Sequence record: PP886229
DNA: 64,000 nucleotides
Strand: one strand, 5' to 3'
From: Escherichia phage vB_EcoM_E9
Of the stretch, positions 4,722 through 40,513 are shown piece after piece. Position 1 is the stretch's first letter. Every line of letters starts with the position of its first letter. Both the position numbers and the translations under genes were made by a program. Under the pieces are notes generated by a model. That model worked only from the letters and a program-made list of their open reading frames with translations, was not told the DNA's origin and did not search any database.

Positions 4722-5007
4722 CGTTAAACTCTCTGACGAAGAAATAGTTGACTTTATTATTACCTACCATAAGGTCAAAGCAGGTATTCTCAAAAGGTTT
4801 GTTGTAGGCATCGTATGAAGTGTACGTATCAGCTACTTGTTTAGTATTGAGCTTTTTACTTGATGGATTTAAGAGGCCACCATACAGTTTCTTGATAGCC
4901 TCTTCTACAACAGACCAGATGATTTCGTCAGTAATTTCTTCGTACAGGTCAAGTTCACGCTCTAGTGAGAAGTCACAAATAGGGAAAATAACCTGTACTT
5001 TACTCAT
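4714..5007 (-). CDS. hypothetical protein
   Basis: 97 aa ORF. Confidence 0.45.
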   Translation of the reverse strand: MSKVQVIFPICDFSLERELDLYEEITDEIIWSVVEEAIKKLYGGLLNPSSKKLNTKQVADTYTSYDAYNKPFENTCFDLMVGNNKVNYFFVREFNDE

Positions 5008-5408
5008 TAACGAATAACCTGTGTGACTTGAATTGCTTCAGTTACGGACAAATCACCTACTTTCTCTTCTTTGATAAAAGTGAAGGTGAGTTCAACAGGT
5101 TCTTCCTCTTCTTCTTCTTGCTCAACTGGAATACCGTTAAGCTCATCAAAGATTGATTGGGTAGTCCAGTCTTCTCCACCATCTGGATAGTGGATGGCAT
5201 AAAGAGGAAACTCTAAATTATACCAAGCAAAAACAGGACAACCGTCTGCATCATCTCGGCATCTGTGGAGGTACGTATTTGTACCTTCAAAATGCAAATG
5301 AAGATTGCCATTCTTCTCAAATAGAAGAGCATCTCGCAGGTCTAGTTCCTTATTTTCGCTGTAACGACTGACATCAACTTTAACGTGGATATGACTGTTA
5401 TTATTCAT
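5007..5408 (-). CDS. hypothetical protein with poly-Glu stretch
   Basis: 133 aa ORF, EQEEEEEEP run. Confidence 0.5.
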   Translation of the reverse strand: MNNNSHIHVKVDVSRYSENKELDLRDALLFEKNGNLHLHFEGTNTYLHRCRDDADGCPVFAWYNLEFPLYAIHYPDGGEDWTTQSIFDELNGIPVEQEEEEEEPVELTFTFIKEEKVGDLSVTEAIQVTQVIR

Positions 5409-5799
5409 AAAAACCTCTCTCTGCTTGTTCGATTTTTGCTCTTAAAGTTTCGCAATGCTGTAAATGGTAGTTAGCTTCTTGTTCATGTGTTGCTAACTGC
5501 CTTTCAAGAACAGTTTTATAGTAACCTGCAAGTTGCTCTTTTGTCAATGGGTGCTCTGAAATAATATCAAGTCCACTTTCACCAAGAGGATTGAATTGTC
5601 CATGCTCATTGACATTGTAAGTCTCAAACTTGAACATACCATTGTTCACAGACTCAATAGGTGACAGTTCAACAAGCTCTACAGTAAACCGTGTATACAC
5701 CTTGTCGCCTCTTGAAACTACATTGTTTCCAATGATGCGTACAAGTGAACCGTTACGAGTGTACTTAAAAGTCCCAAAGTCACTAGCCCAAAGTTTCAT
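5401..5799 (-). CDS. hypothetical protein
   Basis: 132 aa ORF. Confidence 0.5.
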   Translation of the reverse strand: MKLWASDFGTFKYTRNGSLVRIIGNNVVSRGDKVYTRFTVELVELSPIESVNNGMFKFETYNVNEHGQFNPLGESGLDIISEHPLTKEQLAGYYKTVLERQLATHEQEANYHLQHCETLRAKIEQAERGFYE

Positions 5800-5824
5800 A
5801 GTTTTCTCCTTAGAAAATAAAAAA

Positions 5825-5840
5825 GGCTCCCGAAGGAGCC
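5825..5840 (-). terminator. Rho-independent terminator hairpin (GGCTCC-CGAA-GGAGCC) with U-run on the minus strand
   Basis: Perfect 6-bp GC-rich stem; A-run 5813-5824 on plus strand. Confidence 0.6.
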
Positions 5841-5850
5841 TATGAAGATA

Positions 5851-6315
5851 TTACTTTGGATATACACTGTCAAGATAAATGTCAGCTTCCATTCTACGTC
5901 TGTTTTTCAAGCCGTTTGAAGTGACCTTCTCACCTTTGACTGTAATCTTGTTCCACCACTGCATAGCTTCTGCACAACCTACCTTATTACCAGCATTGTG
6001 GCGCTTGATAAATGTAGAATCCTGCATAGCTGTGATACCGATGTTGTATGTTTCACTTACAAGTGCATCGAACTCATTCTGAGAAGTAGGAACCTTGATA
6101 GCTTTGTTCACTGCTGCAACAAACTTTTCAACATCTGCGAGAAGATACTGTTCAGCTTGTTCAGCAGTAATTTTCATACCCATCTTAACAGGTTTTCCGT
6201 CAATACGGATTGTGCCATACCCAATTGTTGGGATTCCGGCAGAGTCTTTGTAAGCCTCTAACTTCAGACCTTCAAAGAACTTAATAGCTTCTAAACCTTT
6301 TCTTGAGAGTTGCAT
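5851..6315 (-). CDS. phage lysozyme (GH24, T4-lysozyme-like endolysin)
   Basis: 154 aa; N-terminal E-x8-D-x5-T catalytic-triad spacing in FEGLKLEAYKDSAGIPTIGYGT. Confidence 0.8.
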   Translation of the reverse strand: MQLSRKGLEAIKFFEGLKLEAYKDSAGIPTIGYGTIRIDGKPVKMGMKITAEQAEQYLLADVEKFVAAVNKAIKVPTSQNEFDALVSETYNIGITAMQDSTFIKRHNAGNKVGCAEAMQWWNKITVKGEKVTSNGLKNRRRMEADIYLDSVYPK

Positions 6316-7448
6316 TATGCCTCCCCTGTTGGGTTAACTGTAACTGTTGCCGCATTAGATGTTACAGAGCCACCTGCACCAGTTACTACACAAGTGTAAG
6401 AACCTGCATCAGCAGCAGTTGCACCTTCTTTGGTGTAAGTTGCAGCAGTTGCGTCTGGGATGACTTCCTCACCTTTCTTCCACTGGTAACCTGTTGCACC
6501 AGTTGCCACAACATTCAGCGTTAAGGTCTCACCTTCAGTGATTTCTTGATTTGCTGGCTGTTGAGTGATTACAGGAAGAGCATTCACAGTAACTGTCGCT
6601 GCATTAGATGTGACTGAACCACCTGCACCAGTTACAACACAAGTGTAAGAACCTGCATCTGCTGGAAGCGCACCAGTCTTGCTATAGGTAGCATTTGTAG
6701 CTGAAGGGATGTTAGAGCCATCTTTCTTCCACTGGTAACCTGTTGCACCTATTGCAGTCACTTCCAAGTTGATGTTTCCACCCTCATTAATGGTCTGACT
6801 AGAAGGTTGCTTGGTAATCACTGGTAGTGCATTAACAGTAACTGTTGCCGCATCTGAAGTAACACTTGTTCCAGCCTCTCCAGACACAACACAAGTGTAT
6901 GAACCAGCATCAGAAGGTGCTACGGATTGTTTTGTGTAAGTTGCAGAGGTAGCACTGGAGATGTCCTCACCACCCTTCTTCCACTGATATCCAGTGGCGT
7001 TAGTTGCAATAACACTTAGGGTAAGTGTTCCACCCTCATTGACCGTTTGGTTTGTTGGTTGTTGAGTAATTGCTGGTGGCTTAATAGCATCCTTCAGCTT
7101 AGCATTCAACATTGAGAAAGGTTTAACTCTTGCCAGCCATTCACAGTAAATTGTGTCAACATCTTTACCGTTGATGATTGCATACTGTAAATCCATGAAG
7201 AAATCAGCAGTCCTCATCTGTGCACCAACACTGTAAAGGAGTTCATCACTAAAAGGGACTTTGTAGTCTGGTTTGTAGTCAAACTTCTCAACCTCTGCGA
7301 TATCAGCTTCAGGCCAATATGAACTATAGGTAAGTGGTAAAATAGCCTCTTGATATGTTCTAAAATCATATCTCTTACCAGCCTTTACATTTGCAATGAA
7401 GCCCTTTACAAATTCTTTGAAGTCTGGATAAGTCTTTGCTTTAATCAT
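6315..7448 (-). CDS. Ig-like domain protein (three tandem Ig-like repeats) with N-terminal domain paralogous to the next gene
   Basis: 377 aa; three ~80 aa repeats each ending ATGYQWKKG...DAGSYTCVV...ATVTV; DNA shows three ~250 bp tandem repeats. Confidence 0.7.
   Translation of the reverse strand: MIKAKTYPDFKEFVKGFIANVKAGKRYDFRTYQEAILPLTYSSYWPEADIAEVEKFDYKPDYKVPFSDELLYSVGAQMRTADFFMDLQYAIINGKDVDTIYCEWLARVKPFSMLNAKLKDAIKPPAITQQPTNQTVNEGGTLTLSVIATNATGYQWKKGGEDISSATSATYTKQSVAPSDAGSYTCVVSGEAGTSVTSDAATVTVNALPVITKQPSSQTINEGGNINLEVTAIGATGYQWKKDGSNIPSATNATYSKTGALPADAGSYTCVVTGAGGSVTSNAATVTVNALPVITQQPANQEITEGETLTLNVVATGATGYQWKKGEEVIPDATAATYTKEGATAADAGSYTCVVTGAGGSVTSNAATVTVNPTGEA
6330..7060. repeat. 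Three tandem ~250 bp coding repeats encoding the Ig-like domains
   Basis: Near-identical stretches such as CCACTGGTAACCTGTTGCACC recur at ~6480, ~6725 and ~6975. Confidence 0.7.
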
Positions 7449-7816
7449 TTCTTTTTAGCCTCTAAACGTGCGTTTAATCTGAAATAGCCTTTATGTTGTG
7501 GAGACACATCACCAACAACAATACCTTCAACTTTATAACCCTTACCGATTACATACTGGATATCCATAAGAAACGTACCAAGCCCAACAATGTGGAACAT
7601 TGGGTATAGTAACTTATCTGAATCTGGAAGTTTGATGTCTGGGTTATAGGTAGGTTGCTCGGCAGTTGGTGTAATATCCTCTTCAGGCCATCTACTCATT
7701 CTCCATGTTAAAGGTGATGAAATAACATCGTTAAGATTGTATTTTTCACCATTCTCCACGGAGCGGATATAGGATTGTAGGAAGCAATAAAAGTCTTTTG
7801 CACTCTTAGCCTTCAT
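7445..7816 (-). CDS. hypothetical protein, paralog of the N-terminal domain of the Ig-like protein
   Basis: 123 aa; shares the WPE(A/E)DI...FMD(L/I)QY(A/V)I motif pattern with the 6315-7448 product. Confidence 0.55.
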   Translation of the reverse strand: MKAKSAKDFYCFLQSYIRSVENGEKYNLNDVISSPLTWRMSRWPEEDITPTAEQPTYNPDIKLPDSDKLLYPMFHIVGLGTFLMDIQYVIGKGYKVEGIVVGDVSPQHKGYFRLNARLEAKKK

Positions 7817-7838
7817 TAAATATCCTTATAAATAGATA

Positions 7839-7854
7839 AAGGGGCGTTAGCCCC
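7839..7854 (-). terminator. Hairpin AGGGGC-GTTA-GCCCCT downstream of the 7864-8454 gene
   Basis: Perfect 6-bp stem; T-rich tract on minus strand. Confidence 0.4.
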
Positions 7855-7863
7855 TGTTTATAC

Positions 7864-8454
7864 TTAAGCTTTGGTCTTAAGTAGGTTCTTAAGCTTTTTG
7901 AGATTCATGCTCTCGTCAAACTTAAAACCAAATCCATTGACATAATCAATGAACTCGGATTTCTTACTAAGTGATAGTGCGTAACTCATATCAAAGTTAT
8001 TACTTGTTTCTGCGTCTGGACTAGAGTTCACATCAAATGAAATTTCTGTAGGTTCTTGTTTGCTGCTTCTCATATTATCAATCAATAGACAGGTATAGTT
8101 TGCTGGATAGAAGTTAACACTCCCGTCAACATACCCATACTTATTATTGTGAATGAGACTGGAAAATACCTTAAGAAATGTTTCTGAGTCGTGGCATACA
8201 AGTTTGAATTGACTACATTCACCAAGAGCCACTAAAGAGTAAGGGCTTTCACTATCAATGTCATAATTCGGATTTGATGTTGTAACCGTCACACGCATCA
8301 GGTTATTGGCAATAGTCTTCTGCTTAAAAGAATTTGGAACATAGTGAAGACCTCTGTCACACTGGTTAACCAACTCTTTCAATAGGTCGTTTGCATATGG
8401 TGAGTTAATTGATACAGAGCCATCACTATTGTAATTAAAACTTACTGTTAACAT
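7864..8454 (-). CDS. hypothetical protein
   Basis: 196 aa ORF. Confidence 0.5.
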   Translation of the reverse strand: MLTVSFNYNSDGSVSINSPYANDLLKELVNQCDRGLHYVPNSFKQKTIANNLMRVTVTTSNPNYDIDSESPYSLVALGECSQFKLVCHDSETFLKVFSSLIHNNKYGYVDGSVNFYPANYTCLLIDNMRSSKQEPTEISFDVNSSPDAETSNNFDMSYALSLSKKSEFIDYVNGFGFKFDESMNLKKLKNLLKTKA

Positions 8455-8681
8455 TTTTCAGTTCTCCTGCGATTTATAATTTTGCTGCAATAGAGAAACG
8501 AAGTAAACTCACTGGAAGAAACCATTAAGTGTTGTTCACTAGATTGAGCCATTGCCCTGAAATACATTCCAGTCAAAGCATCATAGTGACTATTCTTTCC
8601 AATTGAGGTTATATAGCCATGACTCTTTGCAGTTTGATATAAATCTATAATATCTGCGATTTCTAATTGGGAACTACACAT
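8448..8681 (-). CDS. hypothetical protein
   Basis: 77 aa ORF. Confidence 0.4.
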   Translation of the reverse strand: MCSSQLEIADIIDLYQTAKSHGYITSIGKNSHYDALTGMYFRAMAQSSEQHLMVSSSEFTSFLYCSKIINRRRTEKC

Positions 8682-9073: not shown

Positions 9074-9445
9074 ATGAAAAACAGAACAAACAAAGGCCAG
9101 TTTAAAAAAGGCCAGTCTGGAAACCCATCTGGAAGACCAAAAGGCTCTCGTAACAAAAGCTCACTTGTAAAAGCTCAACTGACCATTGATAATTCTGCTG
9201 AGTTTGCTGCAAAGTTGTTTGAAGCAATTGTTACAAGGGACGCTGCTAAGCTTGCAGAGTTCGGTTTAACGACTGACGATGTAAACCTGAAGTCGATGAT
9301 GGAAGCTGGTAAAACTATCATGACTCACTCAGCAGGTGAGATGAAAGCCATTGCAGCAGACACTAAGAAGACTCCTGATAACGGTGGTCAGTCTCAGACA
9401 GATAACAAACCAACGTTCTCTGCTGTAGCGACTCTCAAAAAATAA
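9074..9445 (+). CDS. hypothetical protein with N-terminal Gly/Lys-rich motif (GQFKKGQSGNPSGRPKG)
   Basis: 123 aa ORF. Confidence 0.5.
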   Translation: MKNRTNKGQFKKGQSGNPSGRPKGSRNKSSLVKAQLTIDNSAEFAAKLFEAIVTRDAAKLAEFGLTTDDVNLKSMMEAGKTIMTHSAGEMKAIAADTKKTPDNGGQSQTDNKPTFSAVATLKK

Positions 9446-9526: not shown

Positions 9527-10942
9527 ATGAGCGAATTATTTAAACATGCGCACCTTCATGTAGGTCGAACTGAAAATGGTGCTGTAAACCATACTTCATC
9601 AATGTCTGCTCTTGTGGACTTTTACAAAGCTGCTGGTTCCAGCCGTAGTAATGTAGAAATCTTACCAGACTTGTTCTACAAAGCTTTGCGTGAGGATGTT
9701 GATGTTGCAGTTCGTATTTTACTGCATATGCGAGATGTACGAGAAGGTATGGGTGAGCGTAAAGCTTTCCGAACTGTTTTACTTCAAGCGATTGAAGATA
9801 AAGTTTTAGAGCCTACACAGGTTCTTCGCATTATGGATAAGATTGCAGAACTTGGTCGTTTTGATGACTTCAAAATCTTCGTAGGTACTCGTTTTGAGAC
9901 AGATGCCTTCAAACATTTAGAAGCAGCATTACTAGACCCTGCAACATCAGGTTTAGCGGCTAAGTGGTTACCACGAGTAAAACCACGCCACAAACAGTTT
10001 GTAAAACGTTTCTGTAAGTTTGCAAACTTAAGTGAGAAGGAGTATCGCACACTGTTATCTGCACTGTCTGATACGGTTGAGCAAAAAATCTCTGCTAATG
10101 AGTTTGGTAAGATTGACTACAGCAAGATTCCTTCACTCGCTGCTGCACGTTACCAAAAGCTCTTTAACCGTAAAGATGGGGAACGTTACAAAGCTTACAT
10201 TGAGTCCTTATCAAAAGGTGAGGCTAAGATTAACGCTGGTGCTGTTTACCCATACGATGTGATTAAATCTATCAAGTATGGTAATGCAGATGTTGCTAAT
10301 GAGCAGTGGAAAGCACTACCAAACTGGATGGCAGAAGGTGAGAACATCTTGTGTATGACTGATGTTTCAAGCTCAATGTCTTGGGTGAATATTGGTTCAA
10401 TCACTGCCCTTGATATTGGTGTATCACTTGCTTTGTATGTAGCAGAACGCAACACTGGTTGCTTTAAGAATGAGTTAATGGTTTACTCAACAAACCCTCA
10501 CTTCATCGAACTGAGTGGTGATTTACGAAACCGTCATCGTCAGGTAATGCGTCATGTTGAATATGGTTCAACTAACTTACAAGCAGCTTTTGACCGTATT
10601 CTTGAGGTAGGTAAGCGAAACAACTTGACTCAGAAAGATATGCCAAGTAAGCTTATTATCTTCTCCGATATGGAGTTCAATCAGGTTGATGGAGCTAACG
10701 GTCGTACAAACTTTGAAGCAATTCAGAGTAAGTACAAAAAAGCTGGATACGAAATGCCACAACTAGTATTCTGGTACTTAGCAAACCGTAATGGTACTTG
10801 CGAAGTATCTGTTAAGGATAATGGTGTAGCGATGGTATCAGGGTTCTCTCCAGCCACTTTAAAAGCTCTGCTTGGTGGTGAGAAGTTTGACCCAATCAGC
10901 GTAATGCTCAAAGCAGTAATGATTGACCGTTACATCTGGTAA
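9527..10942 (+). CDS. von Willebrand factor A (vWA) domain protein with large N-terminal domain (TROVE/DUF2828-like suspected)
   Basis: 471 aa; MIDAS-like DxSxS motif (CMTDVSSSMSW) in the C-terminal half. Confidence 0.55.
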   Translation: MSELFKHAHLHVGRTENGAVNHTSSMSALVDFYKAAGSSRSNVEILPDLFYKALREDVDVAVRILLHMRDVREGMGERKAFRTVLLQAIEDKVLEPTQVLRIMDKIAELGRFDDFKIFVGTRFETDAFKHLEAALLDPATSGLAAKWLPRVKPRHKQFVKRFCKFANLSEKEYRTLLSALSDTVEQKISANEFGKIDYSKIPSLAAARYQKLFNRKDGERYKAYIESLSKGEAKINAGAVYPYDVIKSIKYGNADVANEQWKALPNWMAEGENILCMTDVSSSMSWVNIGSITALDIGVSLALYVAERNTGCFKNELMVYSTNPHFIELSGDLRNRHRQVMRHVEYGSTNLQAAFDRILEVGKRNNLTQKDMPSKLIIFSDMEFNQVDGANGRTNFEAIQSKYKKAGYEMPQLVFWYLANRNGTCEVSVKDNGVAMVSGFSPATLKALLGGEKFDPISVMLKAVMIDRYIW

Positions 10943-11108: not shown

Positions 11109-11185
11109 CTCTGTTTAGCTCAGCTTGGTAGAGCGTTCCGTTTGGGGCGGTAAGGCCGGAGGTTCAAGTCCTCCAACAGAGACCA
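11109..11185 (+). tRNA. tRNA-Pro (anticodon TGG)
   Basis: 7-bp acceptor CTCTGTT/AACAGAG, D-arm GCTC..GAGC, T-arm GGAGG-TTCAAGT-CCTCC, 3' CCA. Confidence 0.7.
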
Positions 11186-11192
11186 AATTAAT

Positions 11193-11270
11193 GTTCCAGT
11201 AGACAAAATGGTAAAGTCACCACTCTTTCAAAGTGGATATTTGAGGGTTCAAATCCCTTCTGGAACGCCA
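11193..11270 (+). tRNA. tRNA-Glu (anticodon TTC)
   Basis: Acceptor GTTCCAG/CTGGAAC, anticodon stem CCACT/AGTGG, T-loop TTCAAAT, CCA. Confidence 0.7.
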
Positions 11271-11277
11271 GTTTTGA

Positions 11278-11350
11278 CAGAAGACCAATTGCAGCAAACT
11301 TAATCTTATTCATCTGACACGAAATCGGACAAAGAAGAGATTTGGTCTGG
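11278..11350 (+). ncRNA. Stem-bounded tRNA-sized element, copy a (CAGAAG-AGACCAA ... TTGGTCT-GG)
   Basis: 7-bp terminal stem 11282-11288/11342-11348; conserved CAGAAG leader and CAGCAA box; no T-loop consensus. Confidence 0.4.
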
Positions 11351-11361
11351 TCATTAAGAAT

Positions 11362-11438
11362 TGCGGGTATAGAGAAAGGGCGTCTCACATGTCTCATTAG
11401 CATGGTATCGGCAGGTTCGACTCCTGCACCCGCCTCCA
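11362..11438 (+). tRNA. tRNA-Met-like (anticodon CAT), mismatched 1:72 pair
   Basis: Anticodon stem CATGT/GCATG, T-arm GCAGG-TTCGACT-CCTGC, CCA. Confidence 0.55.
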
Positions 11439-11444
11439 AATTTA

Positions 11445-11508
11445 CAGAAGACCGTTTACAGCAATATTTATTAAATTTTTAGCGGAAAAATTGAAAGATA
11501 CGGTCTGG
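11445..11508 (+). ncRNA. Stem-bounded element, copy b (CAGAAG-AGACCGT ... ACGGTCT-GG)
   Basis: 7-bp terminal stem with compensatory changes relative to copies a and c. Confidence 0.4.
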
Positions 11509-11521
11509 TAATACTAAACAT

Positions 11522-11598
11522 GGTTAGGAAGCACATAAGGTATGTGCGGTCGCCTGTTAAGCGAATGGCACAGGGTTCGAATCCCTGACTAACCGCCA
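11522..11598 (+). tRNA. tRNA-Asn (anticodon GTT)
   Basis: D-arm GCAC..GTGC, T-arm CAGGG-TTCGAAT-CCCTG, CCA. Confidence 0.65.
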
Positions 11599-11607
11599 AA
11601 TTTAAAT

Positions 11608-11695
11608 GTGTCGTTATCCCGTAGATGGTAGCGGTGGGGACTGTAAATCCCTTGTCATTGAGACTCGGTAGGTTCGACTCCTACACGGCACACCA
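11608..11695 (+). tRNA. tRNA-Tyr (anticodon GTA), long variable arm
   Basis: Acceptor GTGTCGT/ACGGCAC, anticodon stem GGGGA/TCCCT, T-arm GTAGG-TTCGACT-CCTAC, 88 nt. Confidence 0.7.
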
Positions 11696-11701
11696 AATAA
11701 A

Positions 11702-11779
11702 GGTTATGTAGTTTAATCTGGTTAAAATACTCCCCTGTCACGGGAGATGATGTGAGTTCAAGTCTCATCGTAACCGCCA
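11702..11779 (+). tRNA. tRNA-Asp (anticodon GTC)
   Basis: Acceptor GGTTATG/CGTAACC, anticodon stem CTCCC/GGGAG, CCA. Confidence 0.7.
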
Positions 11780-11866
11780 AATTATAATAAGTATTTCAAG
11801 ATGATGTTTTGAGAGGGCTATTTAGCCCCTCCCTTAAAGAGTTCTTACGAGTATTCTTTAAAGGAG

Positions 11867-11940
11867 CAGAAGACCAAATTCAGCAAGTTACTTAAAATTT
11901 CAAGCCAATTTAATTTTGAAAAATTTAAAACTTGGTCTGG
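11867..11940 (+). ncRNA. Stem-bounded element, copy c (CAGAAG-AGACCAA ... TTGGTCT-GG)
   Basis: 7-bp terminal stem 11871-11877/11932-11938. Confidence 0.4.
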
Positions 11941-11953
11941 CTCAAAAATTTTA

Positions 11954-12085
11954 CAGAAGACCGTTTACAGCAAAACTTAAACAATCTATTTCTCCGGTAA
12001 AGAAAAGGCGAAGGTTCGATTCCTTCACTCGGCAGATGTCGAGTTGGTGTAATGGTAGCACTTAAGATGATAAACAACGGTCTGG
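11954..12085 (+). ncRNA. Stem-bounded element, copy d, enclosing tRNA halves in permuted order
   Basis: 8-bp terminal stem AGACCGTT/AACGGTCT (11958-11965/12076-12083); contains a T-arm and a D-arm in reversed order. Confidence 0.4.
11989..12061 (+). tRNA. Candidate circularly permuted tRNA (anticodon GGT, Thr-like): 3' half 11989-12034 precedes 5' half 12038-12061
   Basis: 3' half has anticodon arm TTTCT-CCGGTAA-AGAAA, T-arm GAAGG-TTCGATT-CCTTC, acceptor ACTCGGC; 5' half has acceptor GTCGAGT (7 bp with one G-U) and D-arm GTGT-AATGGTA-GCAC. Confidence 0.35.
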
Positions 12086-12086
12086 T

Positions 12087-12230
12087 AATTATCTTTGTAG
12101 ATAAGTTATTAAGCTTACCTGTGAGTATGCGACCACAAAGGGTGAAAGGGCAAATTCTAGATTTAAACCCAACAAGGCACATCGCTACAGACCTTAAGCA
12201 AGTCTGGGTAGCTTATCTACAAAGATAATT
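12087..12230. repeat. 19-bp perfect inverted repeat AATTATCTTTGTAGATAAG (12087-12105 / 12212-12230) flanking ~106 bp
   Basis: Arms are exact reverse complements. Confidence 0.6.
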
Positions 12231-12234
12231 TAAT

Positions 12235-12310
12235 GGAAGTGTAGCAGAATGGTGATGCGGCAGACTTTTAATCTGACAGGCGATGGGTTCGAATCCCTCC
12301 ACTTCTACCA
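12235..12310 (+). tRNA. tRNA-Lys (anticodon TTT)
   Basis: Acceptor GGAAGTG/CACTTCT, loop CTTTTAA, T-loop TTCGAAT, CCA. Confidence 0.6.
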
Positions 12311-12314
12311 ATAT

Positions 12315-12391
12315 GGTTCAGTCGCAGATAAGGTAATGCAGGGGTCTCATAAGCCCTATGAATGTGGGTTCGATTCCCATCTGAACCTCCA
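12315..12391 (+). tRNA. tRNA-Met or tRNA-Ile2 (anticodon CAT)
   Basis: Perfect acceptor GGTTCAG/CTGAACC, loop CTCATAA, CCA. Confidence 0.7.
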
Positions 12392-12392
12392 A

Positions 12393-12468
12393 GCTGGTAT
12401 AGTTAAGAAGGTTATAACACTCCCCTGATAAGGGAACATCGGTGGTTCGATTCCACCTACCAGTACCA
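12393..12468 (+). tRNA. tRNA-Ile (anticodon GAT)
   Basis: T-arm GGTGG-TTCGATT-CCACC, loop CTGATAA, CCA. Confidence 0.65.
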
Positions 12469-12483
12469 ATTTCAATAAAGTTG

Positions 12484-12512
12484 TTGACATTGAGATGTGA
12501 CTACTTTATAGT
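12484..12512 (+). promoter_or_regulatory. Sigma70-like promoter TTGACA-N17-TATAGT inside the tRNA array
   Basis: Exact -35 at 12484-12489 and -10 TATAGT at 12507-12512 with 17-nt spacer. Confidence 0.55.
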
Positions 12513-12805
12513 AACTGAAAATAATTCAGCATATGTATAATTCAAACACCAATACATGAGCGTTAGACGTAACACAATGTGGGGAAATTTGTTGTACATA
12601 TTCTGAATAGTTTTCGTTGCGTAGCGTCTATTTTGCAAATTTAAAATAAATGCAAACGACAATGTTTTTCTGGCAGTAGCTTGATAGGCTAAACACCAGT
12701 GAGGTCTTCCAATCCCTCATCAAAGAATTTGGCGTACTAGCCCACGGTATGATTAATAAGGTGGGCATCTTTAAGGGCTTTCTAAGAGAGTCTTTAAAGA
12801 TTAAT

Positions 12806-12882
12806 GCACCCTTAGTTCAATTGGATAGAGCAACGGTCTTCTAAATCGTTAGTTACAGGTTCGAATCCTGTAGGGTGTGCCA
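12806..12882 (+). tRNA. tRNA-Arg (anticodon TCT)
   Basis: D-arm AGTTCAATTGGATAGAGC, loop CTTCTAA, T-loop TTCGAAT, CCA. Confidence 0.7.
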
Positions 12883-13024
12883 AATAGTTAGCAGATTGCT
12901 TAGACGACCTTATCGGGTCTCCGTGTAAGGAGGTGGTCTGTATCTCATGTTTTCCAGAACATGTAAATAATCTGAGAAGGGGCTTTACAGTGTTGCGAAA
13001 ATACGGTAAGCTTCGAATTACAGT

Positions 13025-13107
13025 ATGGGACGATGTTAAGACTCTAAGGCATGAGCAACGGCCTCCAAAACCGTTTCAAAGGGGTTCAACTCCTCCGTCC
13101 CATGCCA
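13025..13107 (+). tRNA. Atypical tRNA-like sequence, anticodon unassigned
   Basis: Acceptor ATGGGAC/GTCCCAT plus T-loop-like GGGGTTCAACTCC and CCA, but no clean D-arm or 7-nt anticodon loop. Confidence 0.3.
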
Positions 13108-13120
13108 AAGTCTTATTAGG

Positions 13121-13208
13121 GGTAGGTAGCGGCTAATGGCAGCCAAACAGTCTTGAAAACTGTTGCCACTGTAGAGATACGGTGAGGGTTCGACTCCTTT
13201 ACTTACCG
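13121..13208 (+). tRNA. tRNA-Ser (anticodon TGA), long variable arm
   Basis: Anticodon stem ACAGT/ACTGT, loop CTTGAAA, long variable arm, T-loop TTCGACT; no encoded CCA. Confidence 0.6.
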
Positions 13209-13364
13209 CCTAATAAGATTTACACCGTCCATGCTTGCTCGCATTTTCGGTTTATCCCTCGTGTATTGTCGTACACTGATAAAGCACCTAGCAGGTGTCA
13301 CGGAGAAGAGATAATATCAAGCTCTCCAAAGGTTCTAGTCACCGGATTAAACAAGACTATGCAA

Positions 13365-13384
13365 AGACCTATTTAGGTCTTTTT
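13365..13384 (+). terminator. Rho-independent terminator AAGACCT-ATTT-AGGTCTT followed by TTTTT
   Basis: 7-bp stem plus T-run, inside the tRNA array. Confidence 0.6.
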
Positions 13385-13463
13385 AGAGGGCTTCTAAGGT
13401 TATTACAGCTTGTTGTGGAACCTTGTTGCTTAGGTTCTTAGAAGTTCTCTAAAAAGATTTAAT

Positions 13464-13541
13464 GGGAGATTGACGGTAATTGGTAAACCTACCATCCTTA
13501 GAAGTTGGTGTTTGAGGGTTCGAATCCCTTGTCTCCTACCA
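13464..13541 (+). tRNA. tRNA with apparent anticodon TAG (Leu-type) but short variable arm; identity uncertain
   Basis: Acceptor GGGAGAT/GTCTCCT, T-arm GAGGG-TTCGAAT-CCCTT, CCA; 78 nt. Confidence 0.5.
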
Positions 13542-13548
13542 AATTAAT

Positions 13549-13624
13549 GCAGGTGTAGCAAAATGGTTATGCGGCTGACTCTTAATCAGTAAGACGATGG
13601 GTTCAATTCCCTCCACCTGTACCA
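13549..13624 (+). tRNA. tRNA-Lys (anticodon CTT)
   Basis: Anticodon stem GCTGA/TCAGT, loop CTCTTAA, CCA. Confidence 0.65.
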
Positions 13625-13630
13625 AACAAT

Positions 13631-13706
13631 GGGGTCATAGTTTATATGGTTAAAATTCTAGTTTTGCAAACTTGGGAACTGAGTTCAATTCTCAGTGACT
13701 CCACCA
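13631..13706 (+). tRNA. tRNA-Ala (anticodon TGC)
   Basis: Acceptor GGGGTCA/TGACTCC with the G3:U70 wobble typical of tRNA-Ala; CCA. Confidence 0.75.
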
Positions 13707-13712
13707 ATTAGT

Positions 13713-13787
13713 GCATCCATAGTTTAAACGGGAAAATTACAGTCTTCCAAACTGAGGTTGAGGGTTCGATTCCCTCTGGATGCTCCA
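13713..13787 (+). tRNA. tRNA-Gly (anticodon TCC)
   Basis: Perfect acceptor GCATCCA/TGGATGC, loop CTTCCAA, CCA. Confidence 0.7.
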
Positions 13788-13794
13788 AATTAAT

Positions 13795-13870
13795 GCTCCT
13801 ATCGTATAATTGGCTATTACGGTTGCCTTGTAAGCAACTTATCAGGGTTCGAATCCTTGTGGGAGCACCA
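13795..13870 (+). tRNA. tRNA-Thr (anticodon TGT)
   Basis: Anticodon stem GTTGC/GCAAC, loop CTTGTAA, T-loop TTCGAAT, CCA. Confidence 0.7.
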
Positions 13871-13874
13871 ATTT

Positions 13875-13961
13875 AGAGGTCAAGTGAAAGACCGCTTTGA
13901 GTCAACTGAAGACCGTAACAAATTCCACGGAGTTGAGTTAGCGGCACAACTTCAGACCTCT
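13875..13961 (+). ncRNA. Stem-bounded ~87 nt non-tRNA element (AGAGGTC ... GACCTCT) containing GAAGACC motifs
   Basis: 7-bp terminal inverted repeat 13875-13881/13955-13961; no T-loop consensus. Confidence 0.3.
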
Positions 13962-13966
13962 TTAAT

Positions 13967-14041
13967 ACTCGCTTAGTTTATATGGTAAAACACCACCCTT
14001 ACAAGATGAAGAAAAAGGTTCAAGTCCTTTAGTGAGTACCA
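13967..14041 (+). tRNA. tRNA-Val (anticodon TAC), weak anticodon stem
   Basis: Acceptor ACTCGCT/AGTGAGT, D-arm GTTT..AAAC, T-arm AAAGG-TTCAAGT-CCTTT, CCA. Confidence 0.5.
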
Positions 14042-14042
14042 T

Positions 14043-14120
14043 GTTCCAGTATCCCAATTGGTAGAGGATGCAAGCTCAAACCTTGCACTAGTGACGGTTC
14101 GAATCCGTCTTGGAACACCA
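14043..14120 (+). tRNA. tRNA with anticodon CAA (Leu-type) but class I architecture; identity uncertain
   Basis: Perfect anticodon stem GCAAG/CTTGC, loop CTCAAAC, T-arm GACGG-TTCGAAT-CCGTC, CCA. Confidence 0.55.
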
Positions 14121-14125
14121 ATTTT

Positions 14126-14201
14126 GCAGGATTAGTTCAAATGGATAGAGCAACAGTCTACGAAGCTGTTAATAGGGGTTCGAATCCCTTATCCTGCACC
14201 A
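14126..14201 (+). tRNA. tRNA-Arg (anticodon ACG)
   Basis: Perfect acceptor GCAGGAT/ATCCTGC, loop CTACGAA, CCA. Confidence 0.7.
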
Positions 14202-14219
14202 ATTAAGTAAGAGGGATTT

Positions 14220-14462
14220 ATGCAAACATTAATAGTCGTTGAACATGAAAATTCCAATAGCATTGAGTTTGTAAGGGTTCCCACTATAGATACCCACATT
14301 TTCTTGAAAGTCGGCTGGGGATGCGACCCAATAAGAGTAGAAAAATTTATTGGTCATTGCTTTGGTGGAAGACAACTTAAAAGTGTCAATTTTGAGACAA
14401 TGCTACCAGAAAACTCAGAAACAAATAATAATGCTTACCTCCTTACGAGGATTAGACAATGA
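14220..14462 (+). CDS. hypothetical protein embedded in the tRNA array
   Basis: 80 aa ORF in a tRNA-free gap, stop overlaps the next ORF start. Confidence 0.4.
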   Translation: MQTLIVVEHENSNSIEFVRVPTIDTHIFLKVGWGCDPIRVEKFIGHCFGGRQLKSVNFETMLPENSETNNNAYLLTRIRQ

Positions 14463-15016
14463 GATACTTAAAATATGTTTCATGGATTTTCTTAGCTTTG
14501 TTAGAGCCATTTGCAGCAATCTTAGCAGTTATCTTAGCACCTTTTGTAGTTCCATTTTACAGTGAGAAGAAAGGACACTTACCTTTCGGATTTAGATGGA
14601 TGGAAACTTATGACAACCCGATTGATGGTGATGAAGGTCATGTCAAACGATGGGCTAAGATTAGAAAGATTGGTAAGCTTGGTGTCTATTTACAGAGAGT
14701 TGGATGGCTCTGGAGAAACAAAGCTTATAACTTCTCTTACCATGTGTTAGGAAGAGATGTAAAAGATGTTACTAAGTGGAAAGGTAATATCAACGTAAGC
14801 TCTGACCCTGAAGATAATCAGACAGGTTATCTCCTAATGTGGAACAGTAATGCTTGGGGATTATTCGCTTTTATCCCATCAATTAAAGTCTTTGGTAAAC
14901 AATTCTACTGGAGAATTTATGTTGGATGGAAACTTAAAAGTGTTGTCCCAGAAGAAAGAGCATTCTCAAGGGAAAGAGTTATGTTGGCATTCTTTATTCA
15001 TCCACTAAGAAAGTAA
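14459..15016 (+). CDS. putative membrane protein embedded in the tRNA array
   Basis: 185 aa; N-terminal hydrophobic helix (WIFLALLEPFAAILAVILAPFVVPF). Confidence 0.5.
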   Translation: MRYLKYVSWIFLALLEPFAAILAVILAPFVVPFYSEKKGHLPFGFRWMETYDNPIDGDEGHVKRWAKIRKIGKLGVYLQRVGWLWRNKAYNFSYHVLGRDVKDVTKWKGNINVSSDPEDNQTGYLLMWNSNAWGLFAFIPSIKVFGKQFYWRIYVGWKLKSVVPEERAFSRERVMLAFFIHPLRK

Positions 15017-15024
15017 AGATTTAA

Positions 15025-15100
15025 AGGGGATTAGTTTACAAGGTTAAAACCTCGGTCTTTGAAATCGAAGAAGTTGGTTCAATTCCAACATCCCCCGCCA
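15025..15100 (+). tRNA. tRNA-Gln (anticodon TTG)
   Basis: Anticodon stem TCGGT/ATCGA, loop CTTTGAA, T-arm GTTGG-TTCAATT-CCAAC, mismatched 1:72 pair. Confidence 0.6.
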
Positions 15101-15102
15101 AT

Positions 15103-15181
15103 GCTCCATTACTCCAATTGGCAGAGAGGCCAGACTTAAAATCTGTGTTATGTATCGGTTCGAATCCGATATGGAGTACCA
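15103..15181 (+). tRNA. tRNA with anticodon TAA (Leu-type) but no long variable arm; identity uncertain
   Basis: Acceptor GCTCCAT/ATGGAGT, loop CTTAAAA, T-arm ATCGG-TTCGAAT-CCGAT, CCA. Confidence 0.5.
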
Positions 15182-15186
15182 AATTT

Positions 15187-15262
15187 AGCGGTATAGCATA
15201 ACTGGCAATGCAGCAGTCTCTGAAGCTGTCTTATTAAGGTTCAAATCCTTATGCCGCTGCCA
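15187..15262 (+). tRNA. tRNA-Gln (anticodon CTG)
   Basis: Anticodon stem GCAGT/GCTGT, loop CTCTGAA, T-arm TAAGG-TTCAAAT-CCTTA, CCA. Confidence 0.6.
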
Positions 15263-15293
15263 CTTCTAAGGGTTCTTACGAGAGTCCTTAAAT

Positions 15294-15369
15294 GTGGCCT
15301 TATCATAAATGGTAATGACCCATGCTGTGAACATGGTCTATACGGGTTCAAATCCCGTAGGTCACCCCA
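15294..15369 (+). tRNA. tRNA-His (anticodon GTG)
   Basis: Perfect anticodon stem CCATG/CATGG, loop CTGTGAA, CCA. Confidence 0.65.
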
Positions 15370-15375
15370 ATTTAT

Positions 15376-15451
15376 AGTCCAAGTAGCTTATATGGTTAAA
15401 GCGCGTGTCTGAAAAACATGAGAAGAGGGTTCAAATCCCACTGGACTACCA
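15376..15451 (+). tRNA. tRNA-Phe (anticodon GAA)
   Basis: Loop CTGAAAA, T-loop TTCAAAT, acceptor 3' strand CTGGACT, CCA; overlaps the GTG start proposed by the ORF track. Confidence 0.55.
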
Positions 15452-15467
15452 ATTTCAAAGGTGCTTA

Positions 15468-16202
15468 ATGAAAGAGATGACAGAACAAGGTAAGGAGATT
15501 TTTAATCTCTTAAAAACCGGTAGAGGGTTTTCTAACCCCCTTATTACTGGTGCAGCAGTTCTCGGTGGAACCGTAGCTGCCTCTACATCACTTGTAAGCT
15601 CTATTAGCTCTGTAACAGACCCTACAATAAAGGATAAGCTTGTTGCTGCTGGGCTTACAACAGTTCTGCTTAATAGCTTTACAACGAGTCTGACAAGCAC
15701 TACATCAACTACTAAGACACTGACAGATTACGGTCAAAAGTCCATTGATGAGTTTTCATCACGTATGCAGGTAGCAAAAGGATATTCCAATGTTATGGGT
15801 GCAGCAGGAGAGCAAGTCGGTTGTACGCCATTTAGTGGTATTATGGGTGTTGCTACAGAATATGGTCAAAAAGCTATTGACACGATTAACAACACGTTAG
15901 ACAGTGTTAATGATGTATTAAGTGACTTACAAGATGCTATTGATAAAGGTCTTGATACTGTTTCTGATTTAGCTAACCAAGCTGTTAGCAAGATTAATGA
16001 AGGTATCTCGAAGATTACAGCTTATGCAGATGAAGTTGTGCAGATGATTGAAGAAGAAGCTGCCCTTATTGCAGAGTACCTTAAAACGAATATCAATGGG
16101 TTCTTAGCAGGTATCTTACCAGACTGGTTTGACGATGCTTGTAAAACTGGTGTGATTGACACTATTGCAACACAAGAAATGAAGAACGCATTACAGAAAT
16201 AA
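15468..16202 (+). CDS. hypothetical Ser/Thr-rich protein with N-terminal hydrophobic segment
   Basis: ORF track 15405..16202 starts at a GTG inside tRNA-Phe; in-frame ATG at 15468 (MKEMTEQ) clears the tRNA. Confidence 0.5.
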   Translation: MKEMTEQGKEIFNLLKTGRGFSNPLITGAAVLGGTVAASTSLVSSISSVTDPTIKDKLVAAGLTTVLLNSFTTSLTSTTSTTKTLTDYGQKSIDEFSSRMQVAKGYSNVMGAAGEQVGCTPFSGIMGVATEYGQKAIDTINNTLDSVNDVLSDLQDAIDKGLDTVSDLANQAVSKINEGISKITAYADEVVQMIEEEAALIAEYLKTNINGFLAGILPDWFDDACKTGVIDTIATQEMKNALQK

Positions 16203-16203
16203 T

Positions 16204-16296: not shown

Positions 16297-16300
16297 ATTT

Positions 16301-18438: not shown

Positions 18439-19905
18439 ATGGCAGATATTACAGAAACACAAGAAAGCTTACCACCATTTAGAATGGGTGAAGTAGGTTC
18501 TTTGGGTCTGAAGGTTAAGAATGGAAGAATCTATGAAGAACCTCGTCAGGCACTAAGGTTCCCTGAAAGTATTAAAACTTTCCAATTAATGATGCGTGAC
18601 CCTGCTGTAGCAGCATCTGTAAATATTATTAAGATGTTTGTCAGAAAAGTCAACTGGAGATTCGTACCTCCAAAGGGAAAAGAGCAAGACCCTAAAATGC
18701 TTGAAAGAGCAGACTTCTTTAATTCTTTAATGGATGACATGGAGCATGATTGGGCAGATTTTATTAACTCTGTAATGTCATTCTGCACTTATGGGTTCTG
18801 TGTTAACGAAAAGGTTTATAAGAAACGTCAGGGTAAAAAAGGAAAGTACCAGTCAAAATTTGATGATGGTCTAATTGGGTGGGCTAAATTACCAATCAGA
18901 AACCAGTCAACACTTGATAAGTGGTATTTTGACGAAGACTTTAGAAAAGTTACTGGTGTTAGACAAAATCTAAGAAATGTTTCACATATTGCTGGAGCAA
19001 TTAATCTTGGAGAAAGACCACTAACAAGAAAACTTCCACGAGCTAAATTCATGCTGTTTAAGTATGATGATGAGTATGGTAACCCAGAAGGTCGTTCACC
19101 ATTACTTAATGCTTATGTACCGTGGAAGTATAAAGTACAGATTGAAGAGTATGAAGCTGTTGGTGTTTCAAGAGACTTAGTAGGTATGCCAAAGATTGGT
19201 TTACCACCAGATTATCTTGATGAAAATGCAGAACCTGAAAAGAAAGCTTTCGTACAATACTGCAAAACTGTTGTTAATGATATGATTGCTAACGACAGAG
19301 CAGGTTTAATCTGGCCTAGATATATCGACCCAGATACTAAAGAGGATATTTTTGAGTTCTCATTAGTTTCTAGACAGGGTGCTAAAGCATACGATACAGG
19401 TTCTATTATTGACAGATATTCCAAGCAAATCATGATGGCATTTATGTCAGATGTTCTTGCTATGGGTCAGTCAAAATACGGTTCATTCTCTCTTGCAGAT
19501 TCTAAGACAAGCTTATTAGCAATGTCAGTAGATATTCTGCTGAAGCAAATTAAGAACGTAATTAACCGTGACTTAGTTGCACAGACTTATGCTCTTAATA
19601 TGTGGGATGATGAAGAACATGTGCAAATCACATATGATGATATCGAAACTCCAGACCTTGAGGCAATTGGTTCTTATATTCAGAAGACTGTTGCAGTAGG
19701 TGCTTTGGAAGTTGACAAAGAGCTATCTAACAAACTTAGAGAGCATATTGGTCTTCCTCCTGCTGATGAGTCTCAGCCAGTATCTGAAAAGCTTTCTCCG
19801 AATAGTCAAAGCCGTTCAGGAGACGGTTATAAGACCGCTGGAGAAGGTACTGCAAAGACACCTTCAGCGAAAGACCCAAGCACAGCAAATAAGGCAAATA
19901 AATAA
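18439..19905 (+). CDS. portal protein (putative)
   Basis: ~490 aa ORF directly after terminase; ORF track starts at GTG 18430, ATG at 18439. Confidence 0.6.
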   Translation: MADITETQESLPPFRMGEVGSLGLKVKNGRIYEEPRQALRFPESIKTFQLMMRDPAVAASVNIIKMFVRKVNWRFVPPKGKEQDPKMLERADFFNSLMDDMEHDWADFINSVMSFCTYGFCVNEKVYKKRQGKKGKYQSKFDDGLIGWAKLPIRNQSTLDKWYFDEDFRKVTGVRQNLRNVSHIAGAINLGERPLTRKLPRAKFMLFKYDDEYGNPEGRSPLLNAYVPWKYKVQIEEYEAVGVSRDLVGMPKIGLPPDYLDENAEPEKKAFVQYCKTVVNDMIANDRAGLIWPRYIDPDTKEDIFEFSLVSRQGAKAYDTGSIIDRYSKQIMMAFMSDVLAMGQSKYGSFSLADSKTSLLAMSVDILLKQIKNVINRDLVAQTYALNMWDDEEHVQITYDDIETPDLEAIGSYIQKTVAVGALEVDKELSNKLREHIGLPPADESQPVSEKLSPNSQSRSGDGYKTAGEGTAKTPSAKDPSTANKANK

Positions 19906-28081: not shown

Positions 28082-33465
<5,384 letters not shown>

Positions 33466-39947: not shown

Positions 39948-40145
39948 ATGCCTACAATCCTAGCAATTCTTCTAAAAAATCTAGGTAGCTTCTTCTGGAA
40001 ACTCATTTTATCCCTTCTAAGTGAATACATGATTGAGAAAGTGTTCTTTAGGCTTGCAAGATACCTTGCGAGTAAAACAGACACACCTATTGATGATGAG
40101 TTCGTAGATAACTTAGAAAAAGCTTTTAAGGGGGAAAATAAATGA
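39948..40145 (+). CDS. small hydrophobic protein (holin-like candidate)
   Basis: 65 aa with N-terminal hydrophobic helix. Confidence 0.35.
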   Translation: MPTILAILLKNLGSFFWKLILSLLSEYMIEKVFFRLARYLASKTDTPIDDEFVDNLEKAFKGENK

Positions 40146-40513
40146 AGTGGCTAGAGGAAGCTTTTAAAAATAATATTGGTGCAATTGTAGTTGGTATTTT
40201 TAGTGTTATTGGGATGTATACCACCATGCAAGTTTCAAGTGGTAAACAAGAAGTGTCTGTCACAACAAAGTTACAGCAGCTAGATAACTATTCCAAAAGT
40301 AATTATTCAGCTATTCGTGATTTACAGTCTGACATGAGATTGATTCAGCTAGGGATGGAGAACCAGAAAGTTCAGTTAGAGAATGTTAAGGGTGAGAATG
40401 CAAAACTTACCAAAACTCTTGATAAGTTCTCTGATAGTGTGAACAATCTGGCTCAGTCAGTATCAGCCTTGCAAGCTATTACTGAAAAGAACACAAAGAA
40501 TACTGAAAAATAA
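40142..40513 (+). CDS. membrane-anchored coiled-coil protein (spanin-like candidate)
   Basis: 123 aa; N-terminal TM helix IGAIVVGIFSVIGMY then coiled-coil-like region. Confidence 0.4.
   Translation: MKWLEEAFKNNIGAIVVGIFSVIGMYTTMQVSSGKQEVSVTTKLQQLDNYSKSNYSAIRDLQSDMRLIQLGMENQKVQLENVKGENAKLTKTLDKFSDSVNNLAQSVSALQAITEKNTKNTEK

Follow-up and report, generated by a model that had tools for sequence, protein, structure and literature searches.

A predicted capsid decoration protein, its Ig-less paralogue and the dispersed lysis genes of Escherichia phage vB_EcoM_E9

Why should the endolysin gene of a phage lie next to a gene for an immunoglobulin (Ig)-repeat protein and some 34 kb away from the genes that most resemble holins? 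This question is raised by a 64,000-nucleotide stretch of Escherichia phage vB_EcoM_E9 (sequence record PP886229), which was analysed at its full length and is called the window here. Three of its minus-strand genes encode a protein of 123 amino acids, an Ig-repeat protein of 377 amino acids and an endolysin of 154 amino acids. Comparison with relatives indicates that the 377-residue protein is Hex-Dec, a capsid decoration protein, and that the 123-residue protein is a relative of its capsid-binding domain (CapBD). The identity and mechanism of Hex-Dec and of the endolysin, together with the dispersed layout of the lysis genes, are well supported and already known, and we consider it highly probable that they apply here. 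The original prediction, made from the letters alone, had regarded the placement of the Ig-repeat gene as notable for this genome. Instead, Felix O1-like phages keep Hex-Dec and the endolysin together in a block separate from the remaining structural and lysis genes, and this standard, conserved layout has been published (PMC4319497, PMC12609058).

The window itself appears to be the first 64 kb of a Felixounavirus genome of ~87.6 kb, belonging to a Felix O1-like myophage. In the region 5500-8500 the closest relative, Escherichia phage vB_EcoM_H12, shares 96.3% of the nucleotides at nearly matching coordinates, and 251 records match this region, nearly all of them from Felix O1-like phages of E. 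coli, Salmonella, Shigella and Citrobacter (Ounavirinae). The coordinates of all the open reading frames (ORFs) that matter here were confirmed (5851-6315, 6315-7448 and 7445-7816 on the minus strand; 39948-40145 and 40142-40513 on the plus strand). The minus-strand block contains the following features.

7840..7855, minus strand: terminator-like GC hairpin AGGGGCTAACGCCCCT with a T-rich tail, from the hairpin scan; corresponds to Felix O1 't38'
7445..7816, minus strand: stand-alone CapBD paralogue, 123 amino acids, no Ig domain; corresponds to Felix O1 ORF37, Bas63 gp125 and phrog_4463
6315..7448, minus strand: Hex-Dec, predicted Hoc-like capsid decoration protein, 377 amino acids, CapBD plus three I-set Ig domains
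7083-7448, minus strand: CapBD of Hex-Dec, residues 1-122
6825-7082, 6576-6824 and 6327-6575, minus strand: the three I-set Ig domains of Hex-Dec
5851..6315, minus strand: soluble GH24 (T4-lysozyme-type) endolysin, 154 amino acids; PF00959, phrog_7, PDB 7M5I
5824..5841, minus strand: strong intrinsic-terminator-like hairpin AGGCTCCTTCGGGAGCCT with TTTTTTATTTT, from the scan, directly 3' of the endolysin gene; corresponds to Felix O1 't35'

Hex-Dec and the three-gene unit

The three tandem Ig repeats that had been predicted for the 377-residue protein are indeed present. The Pfam families Ig_3, Ig_2 and I-set each match it in three stretches, and at the DNA level the Ig part is a 249-bp repeat with 2.3-3 copies that are 68-85% identical to one another. 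When the protein was compared with the PDB sequences, it aligned from residue 1 to chain S of 9NCF (E=2.9e-287), the Hex-Dec of Escherichia phage JohannRWettstein/Bas63, entered as the 'Immunoglobulin-like domain protein' of that phage's icosahedral capsid, and to chain S of 9C2D (E=6.9e-172), which is gp20 of Shigella phage Sf14. The cryo-electron microscopy (cryo-EM) study of Bas63 gave the protein the name Hex-Dec and placed it at hexamer centres of the T=9 capsid. In that map the Ig-like domains that follow CapBD were not resolved and density was absent at the remaining hexamers; the authors also reported 1 to 4 Ig domains across felixounaviruses and a gene position 'more than 10 kb outside of the structural module' (PMC12609058). 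In Sf14, CapBD comprises the N-terminal 118 residues, salt bridges connect Arg79 and Arg107 with Asp221 in three subunits of the capsid protein, occupancy is limited to pentamer-proximal hexamers, and gp20 was found in virions by mass spectrometry (PMC11821841). The two-Ig version of Felix O1, gp36, which adjoins the lysin gp35, was detected in virions by mass spectrometry in 2010, with 44% coverage. Virion mass spectrometry, which the original prediction had proposed as a check on the Ig protein, is already on record and positive in Felix O1 and Sf14, and together with the cryo-EM of relatives it agrees with the predicted role as a virion decoration encoded outside the structural module.

The residues involved in docking are conserved in the window: Hex-Dec retains Arg79 and Arg107, and Asp221 is present in the major capsid protein (22518-23627). 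CapBD has an isoelectric point (pI) of 5.5, and the Ig part is acidic, with a pI of 4.5. Disruption of the Bas63 homologue, gp124, was roughly neutral in PhageMaP, with fitness values of +0.3 to +0.4 on MG1655 and about -0.15 on S17-1. According to the mechanism that we propose, the ~120 N-terminal residues that form CapBD would plug as a monomer into the T=9 capsid, at the centre of each of its 60 pentamer-proximal hexamers, with Arg79 and Arg107 of Hex-Dec contacting Asp221 of the major capsid protein, and the three I-set Ig domains would point outward as an adhesion or sensing fibre. Hexamer-centre binding has been shown by cryo-EM in relatives whose proteins are 95% and about 75% identical, and by analogy Hex-Dec of the window can be considered a non-essential, Hoc-like capsid decoration. 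An adhesive role of the Ig fibre seems plausible.

Many GenBank, PHROG and UniRef annotations tell a different story and call this protein a 'major tail protein' or 'tail protein'. It does match phrog_3995 'tail protein' (E=4e-210) and, via the Ig region, phrog_158/853 'major tail protein'; GenBank records carry tail labels, and Felix O1 gp36 was named 'major tail protein' in 2010. We attribute the label to Ig domains that the protein shares with tail-tube proteins. However, in the cryo-EM maps of both Bas63 and Sf14 the homologue sits at the centres of capsid hexamers, and the 377-residue protein differs very little from the chain modelled as 9ncf_S. A tail protein is hardly credible here, as this reading has already been refuted by the solved structures.

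The order of the genes along the minus strand, from 7816 to 5851, is CapBD paralogue, Hex-Dec and endolysin. The stop codon of the paralogue and the start codon of Hex-Dec overlap in ATGA, and the Hex-Dec stop and the endolysin start overlap in TAATG. The hairpin at 7855-7840 is located 24 nt upstream of the paralogue start codon, between the paralogue and an upstream gene for a 196-residue protein; its stem is kept in five phages (Felix O1, Bas63, EF202P1 and Moogle among them) and its loop is variable. Table 2 of the Felix O1 genome paper, which lists terminators, contains t38, and it gives t35 at complement(18652..18680) with the same sequence as the window hairpin at 5824..5841 (PMC3185647). 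Because of the codon overlaps and the terminator-like hairpins on both flanks, the three genes look like a single transcription unit. The gene order of this unit is identical in Felix O1, Bas63, EF202P1 and Moogle. A late-promoter motif shared beside the upstream hairpin was considered and rejected, as the counts of CTATTTATAAGGA and TATTTATAAG correspond to chance expectation in the window.

The Ig-less CapBD paralogue

Hex-Dec had been predicted to share its N-terminal domain with the next gene, at 7445-7816, as the result of a local duplication. The protein encoded there aligns to Hex-Dec residues 2-119 with 36% identity (E=2e-18), which supports a duplication, although not a recent one. 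It also matches residues 3-119 of 9ncf_S (E=1e-12) and 9c2d_S (E=2e-11), and it has no Ig domain and no Pfam match. The only Foldseek matches of its AlphaFold2 model were 9c2d_S and 9ncf_S, with TM-scores of 0.53-0.54; the pLDDT of 61 is moderate, sufficient for a fold match and too low for surface analysis. In all 17 paralogues that were aligned, Arg79 is replaced by Gly, and the position of Arg107 is occupied by Gln in the window protein and in most others, by His in three and by Arg in one. The pI is 8.6, compared to 5.5 for the CapBD of Hex-Dec. Since the Ig domain is missing, Arg79 is lost and the Arg107 position is Gln, the paralogue should be seen as a relative of CapBD and not as a Hex-Dec.

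Pairwise dN/dS values were 0.10-0.29 for the paralogue, at a synonymous divergence of up to ~1.7, compared to 0.02-0.06 for the CapBD of Hex-Dec and 0.02-0.09 for the endolysin. The paralogue falls into 51 sequence clusters, all from Felix O1/Moogle-type phages, and most members have 122-124 amino acids, with a few shorter or truncated. At least 80% of the gene is present in 232 of the 252 phage records, and the alignment of the paralogue with Hex-Dec contains 25 invariant columns. The amino acid sequence of Bas63 gp125 is identical to that of the window paralogue, and its fitness in PhageMaP was noisy and near neutral. Together, these results point to a real, selected and dispensable gene that is under looser constraint than its neighbours. 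Neither of the two cryo-EM papers mentions the paralogue, gp125 or ORF37 (PMC12609058, PMC11821841), and a follow-up literature search on the paralogue found nothing further.

How old the family is can be estimated from its wider distribution. A profile search of 1.84 billion representative proteins recovered 12 CapBD family members at E<=1e-3, either stand-alone or fused to I-set or Big_2 domains. For a divergent stand-alone paralogue, P0055, no locus was found in IMG/VR. In phiEa104/Ea21-4 the adjacency of Hex-Dec and endolysin occurs without the paralogue, so that this adjacency would be older than the duplication. The duplication itself appears to predate the split between Felixounavirus and Mooglevirus.

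Several natural variants of the block exist. Shigella phage Z31 (MN655999.1, locus L007:2300-3070) has no paralogue, and its Hex-Dec has shrunk to a 134-residue CapBD ORF and a 55-residue piece of the final Ig domain. Three small ORFs make up the Hex-Dec region of Salmonella phage ST11 (locus L009:2869-3750). Deletions and frameshifts either arise readily in this block or, in these two records, reflect sequencing errors. In Salmonella phage SP3_SHan-2021 (MW296865.1, locus L008:2501-3379), a single gene for 292 residues replaces both the paralogue and Hex-Dec. It starts with paralogue residues 1-~48 and continues as Hex-Dec, with the crossover at a WPE(E/A)DI motif that both share, which makes it a natural recombinant of the two paralogous genes. 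Felix O1-type paralogue and Hex-Dec sequences are also found in GU169904.1 'Staphylococcus phage SA1' (147 kb) and in MG969406.1 Salmonella phage GE_vB_B3 (109 kb). The first of these carries the name of a Staphylococcus phage, and the second has these sequences at four places instead of two; both are probably mixed or duplicated assemblies.

What does the paralogue do? It is an old duplicate of CapBD in which the Ig part and Arg79 were lost and the position of Arg107 is Gln. We suggest, with low confidence, that it keeps the fold but has lost stable binding to hexamer centres, and that it acts in assembly or otherwise apart from the mature virion, or at low copy. This suggestion is based on the loss of the arginines, on the absence of the protein from published virion proteomes and maps, and on the dispensability of the gene.

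Alternatively, the paralogue might be a second, Ig-less decoration that occupies the 20 facet-centre (true three-fold) hexamers, or a competitor of Hex-Dec. It shares fold and family with CapBD, it is translationally coupled to Hex-Dec, it is under purifying selection, and in Felix O1 ORF37 belongs to the same late class as ORF36 by reverse transcription-PCR (RT-PCR). In addition, the fact that the first ~48 residues of the paralogue replace those of Hex-Dec in the intact SP3 gene suggests structural compatibility, and icosahedral averaging would blur a monomer that sits on a three-fold axis. However, Gly replaces the capsid-contacting Arg79 in 17 of 17 paralogues, and only one of them has Arg at the Arg107 position, the other 16 having Gln or His; no density was reported for the remaining hexamers of Bas63 (PMC12609058); the paralogue is not among the Felix O1 virion proteins identified by mass spectrometry; it is absent from Kolesnikvirus and from ~8% of the Felixounavirus records; and the pI has shifted from 5.5 to 8.6. 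We therefore think that a second decoration or competitor is unlikely. We are equally doubtful about a further reading, in which the paralogue would be an unrecognised capsid-associated factor, either a facet-centre plug, at low copy or lost in symmetry averaging, or a transient binder of procapsid hexamer centres that steers the docking of Hex-Dec. If true, the latter kind of capsid-associated factor, like the former, would help explain why Hex-Dec is found at only 60 of the 80 hexamers.

It has also to be considered that the gene may be a decaying remnant, an upstream ORF that serves translational coupling to Hex-Dec and has no function as a protein. The gene is dispensable, with neutral and noisy PhageMaP scores, it is lost or fused in some genomes, and its dN/dS is 3-5 times that of the Hex-Dec CapBD. 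Nevertheless, values of 0.10-0.29 at a synonymous divergence of up to ~1.7 still indicate clear purifying selection, the length is 122-124 amino acids in most clusters, 232 of 252 genomes have at least 80% of the gene, and the 25 columns invariant between paralogue and Hex-Dec also argue against decay. A remnant seems to us even less probable than a capsid-bound protein, and we favour the off-virion or low-copy role in the tentative form given above.

Published work on close relatives already covers the decoration protein, its location outside the structural module and its variable number of Ig domains, as well as the endolysin structure and the dispersal of the lysis genes. The selected, Ig-less CapBD paralogue of Felixounavirus and Mooglevirus is the only part of this block that falls outside published accounts. 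If it touches the capsid, it bears on the question of how a T=9 shell is decorated in a site-selective manner.

The endolysin and the dispersed lysis genes

The product of 5851-6315 matches PF00959 Phage_lysozyme over profile positions 2-125 of 125 (E=8.9e-41; 139.6 bits, with a cut-off of 22.3) and phrog_7 endolysin (E=1.2e-58). The catalytic triad E15-x8-D24-x5-T30 is present within 'EGLKLEAYKDSAGIPT'. The protein is near-identical to PDB 7M5I, a Felix O1-type GH24 lysozyme, over all 154 residues (E=1.8e-97), with seven substitutions in the alignment shown; the P22 lysozyme 2ANV is another relative. Lysins related to it have reportedly been characterized previously. The original prediction had asked whether the lysozyme has a signal-anchor or is holin-dependent. 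There is no hydrophobic N-terminal segment: the N-terminus is polar, and the maximum KD19 value, 0.81, is internal (residues 57-75). With no signal or signal-anchor-release (SAR) segment, the endolysin would have to wait in the cytoplasm for a holin, and it is therefore predicted to be a soluble GH24 muramidase of the holin-dependent class. Disruption of its Bas63 homologue, gp123, gave fitness values of -0.5 to -1.2 in PhageMaP on S17-1 and MG1655.

The prediction that this is the single recognisable endolysin was confirmed, as no second muralytic enzyme was found in the window; the fully annotated relative Moogle also lists only one endolysin. Two candidates were examined and rejected. The 265-residue product of 30309-31106 (plus strand), encoded after the tape measure gene, is Dit-like (PF21821, E=2e-20). 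The homologue of 5007-5408 (minus strand), Bas63 gene 121, carries the label 'D-alanyl-D-alanine carboxypeptidase*', but there is no Pfam match and phrog_4348 has no assigned function. The label 'endolysin' for 30309-31106 comes from phrog_1517 and from the PhageMaP table, where Bas63 gene 18 is listed as 'endolysin*', and is likely an annotation error that is being propagated. The label 'D-Ala-D-Ala carboxypeptidase' is also found on a neighbouring gene in phage ST11. Database labels of this block are wrong in more than one place, with 'tail protein' on Hex-Dec and on the paralogue and 'endolysin' on the Dit-like baseplate protein.

The distance from the endolysin gene to the holin-like genes is 33.6-34.1 kb, in agreement with the ~34 kb that had been predicted. 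The holin-like genes are the following.

39948..40145, plus strand: protein of 65 amino acids with one N-terminal hydrophobic segment and an acidic C-terminus; phrog_402
40142..40513, plus strand: type-II membrane protein of 123 amino acids by hydropathy, the putative holin of the family; corresponds to Felix O1 gp79, Moogle gp54 and Bas63 gp29

Each of the two proteins has one N-terminal hydrophobic segment with a KD19 value of about 1.6. The product of 40142-40513 has a short N-terminus, one transmembrane segment (residues ~11-29, KD19 1.62) and then a coiled-coil-like C-terminal domain of ~90 residues that ends in a charged C-terminus, 'EKNTKNTEK'. Its homologue is annotated as 'putative holin' in Moogle and as 'holin' in several related records, and disruption of Bas63 gene 29 had a fitness of about -1.5 on MG1655 in PhageMaP. 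We think that 'holin' is a reasonable annotation, helped a little by the fitness of Bas63 gene 29, and that this gene is the most likely holin candidate. The stop codon of the 65-residue gene overlaps the start of the 123-residue gene. The 65-residue protein is highly conserved in Moogle and has no lipobox, and disruption of Bas63 gene 28 had a fitness of about -0.6 to -0.75 in PhageMaP. This small protein may be a partner of the holin.

The original prediction had described 39948-40513 as holin/spanin-like. The small membrane proteins and the putative holin stood; the spanins did not. If the two genes were a spanin pair, or a holin and a spanin, then a lysis cassette lacking only the endolysin would follow the tail fibres. 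The 123-residue protein does have an i-spanin topology, with an N-terminal transmembrane segment and a coiled-coil-like domain, and a weak DivIC-like match. Moreover, an ORF for 30 amino acids (40191-40283, plus strand, TTG start) with an LLGC lipobox is embedded in the part of the gene that encodes the transmembrane segment. However, this ORF is broken by stops in Moogle, although its host gene is highly conserved, and we reject it as an embedded o-spanin and consider it a chance ORF. A canonical overlapped spanin pair is found elsewhere in the family, and the 65-residue protein lacks a lipobox. In H12 the pair lies from 78101 to ~78.6 kb, beyond the window, and consists of an i-spanin of 115 residues and an o-spanin of 89 residues with the lipobox MSGC, and the Moogle record has an overlapped i-/o-spanin pair near pnk/rIIB. 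A tblastn search of the window with the H12 and Moogle i- and o-spanins gave only noise, with a best E=0.02 over 27 residues at 26285-26365. Because the embedded lipobox ORF is not conserved and the pair of the family lies outside the window, spanins at 39948-40513 were judged very improbable and rejected.

The lysis genes would then be at three loci, with the endolysin at the first, the candidate holin (40142-40513) at the second and the overlapped i-/o-spanin pair, outside the window, at the third. Such a dispersed arrangement has been described before. The Felix O1 genome has no holin-lysin cassette, its holin and lysin genes being separated 'as with coliphage T4' (PMC3185647); for Moogle, the genes for the endolysin, the holin and both spanins are described as 'scattered around the genome' (PMC4319497).

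Several points weigh against parts of this account. All structural evidence has been transferred from relatives of vB_EcoM_E9, and the absence of the paralogue from virions is concluded from negatives (no mass spectrometry match in Felix O1; not modelled in the cryo-EM papers). A promoter of the three-gene unit was searched for and none was identified. RT-PCR in Felix O1 placed ORF36 and ORF37 in a late class (60 min), ORF35 at 25 min and ORF79 at 5 min; we give little weight to this timing because the major capsid gene 58 falls in the 5-min class there, and it can be used only weakly as evidence of co-regulation. The fitness cost of Bas63 gp123 disruption is absent in some PhageMaP conditions, and fitness is positive in some screens on defence strains. 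As for the holin, the 123-residue candidate corresponds to phrog_4038, which has no assigned function, and matches no Pfam family above the cut-off; its gene is 34 kb from the endolysin and not adjacent, and the name 'holin' is an inference of annotators. The Felix O1 genome paper lists five holin candidates, gp79 being one of them (PMC3185647).

Other parts of the window yielded a few further observations. The Rfam scan of the whole window gave 24 tRNA matches (RF00005) and nothing else, and the array extends over 11109-16373 (plus strand). Small ORFs are interspersed in this array, including one at 14459-15016 for a 185-residue protein with a hydrophobic N-terminus, which is probably Bas63 gene 153, labelled 'holin*' and neutral in fitness. 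Directly ahead of the array are genes for a DUF5681 protein (9074-9445, plus strand) and a DUF2828/DUF7788 protein (9527-10942, plus strand), the latter annotated as 'RNA-binding protein' in Felix O1. In PhageMaP, the DUF5681 homologue of Bas63, gp129, had a strongly negative fitness (-0.9 to -3.5), whereas the DUF2828 homologue was neutral.

Comparison with known systems

The three-locus layout of lysis genes, as in T4, is the norm for this subfamily. In T4 (e, t, rI, pseT.3/pseT.2), Felix O1 and Moogle, a soluble T4-lysozyme-type endolysin is encoded apart from the holin and the spanins, and the same applies here. The genome also has rIIA and rIIB. The T4 holin T has one transmembrane segment and a large C-terminal domain, a topology that the 123-residue candidate matches. 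T4 T is about twice the size of the candidate, and with no family match there is no detectable sequence relationship between the two.

Hex-Dec of the window is closest to Bas63 Hex-Dec (9NCF_S) and Sf14 gp20 (9C2D_S), which belong to the same family and have the same gene position, with the endolysin directly downstream. The CapBD of the window is 97% identical to that of Bas63, it keeps Arg79 and Arg107, and it is likewise followed by I-set Ig domains. The sole difference is the Ig count, which is three in the window and in Sf14, four in Bas63 and two in Felix O1, EF202P1 and Moogle. The likeness to T4 Hoc is of another kind. Both proteins are acidic, non-essential monomers at hexamer centres in which a string of Ig-like domains is attached to a small capsid-binding domain. 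However, this domain is C-terminal in Hoc and N-terminal in Hex-Dec, and Hex-Dec, unlike Hoc, occupies 60 of the 80 hexamers. The CapBD of Hex-Dec is also larger than that of Hoc and has a distinct topology with pseudo-two-fold lobes (PMC12609058). The 'Hoc-like' PHROG matches of the 377-residue protein are confined to the Ig region, residues 121-371. Hex-Dec probably works like Hoc and yet is not a member of the T4 Hoc family.

More distant relatives are found in Kolesnikvirus. The Erwinia phages phiEa21-4 (gp38) and phiEa104 encode a CapBD homologous to that of Hex-Dec (profile E=2e-8), and its gene lies directly upstream of the endolysin gene and after a homologue of the gene for the 196-residue protein, as in the window. 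In phiEa104 (locus L011:5380-7138), a protein of 204 amino acids combines CapBD with a single Big_2 domain in place of the I-set domains, and there is no stand-alone paralogue upstream. In Kolesnikvirus, the Ig module thus appears to have been swapped and the gene order retained. Across three genera of the Ounavirinae, the adjacency of Hex-Dec and endolysin has been kept, whereas the module attached to CapBD has changed between one to four I-set domains and a single Big_2 domain.

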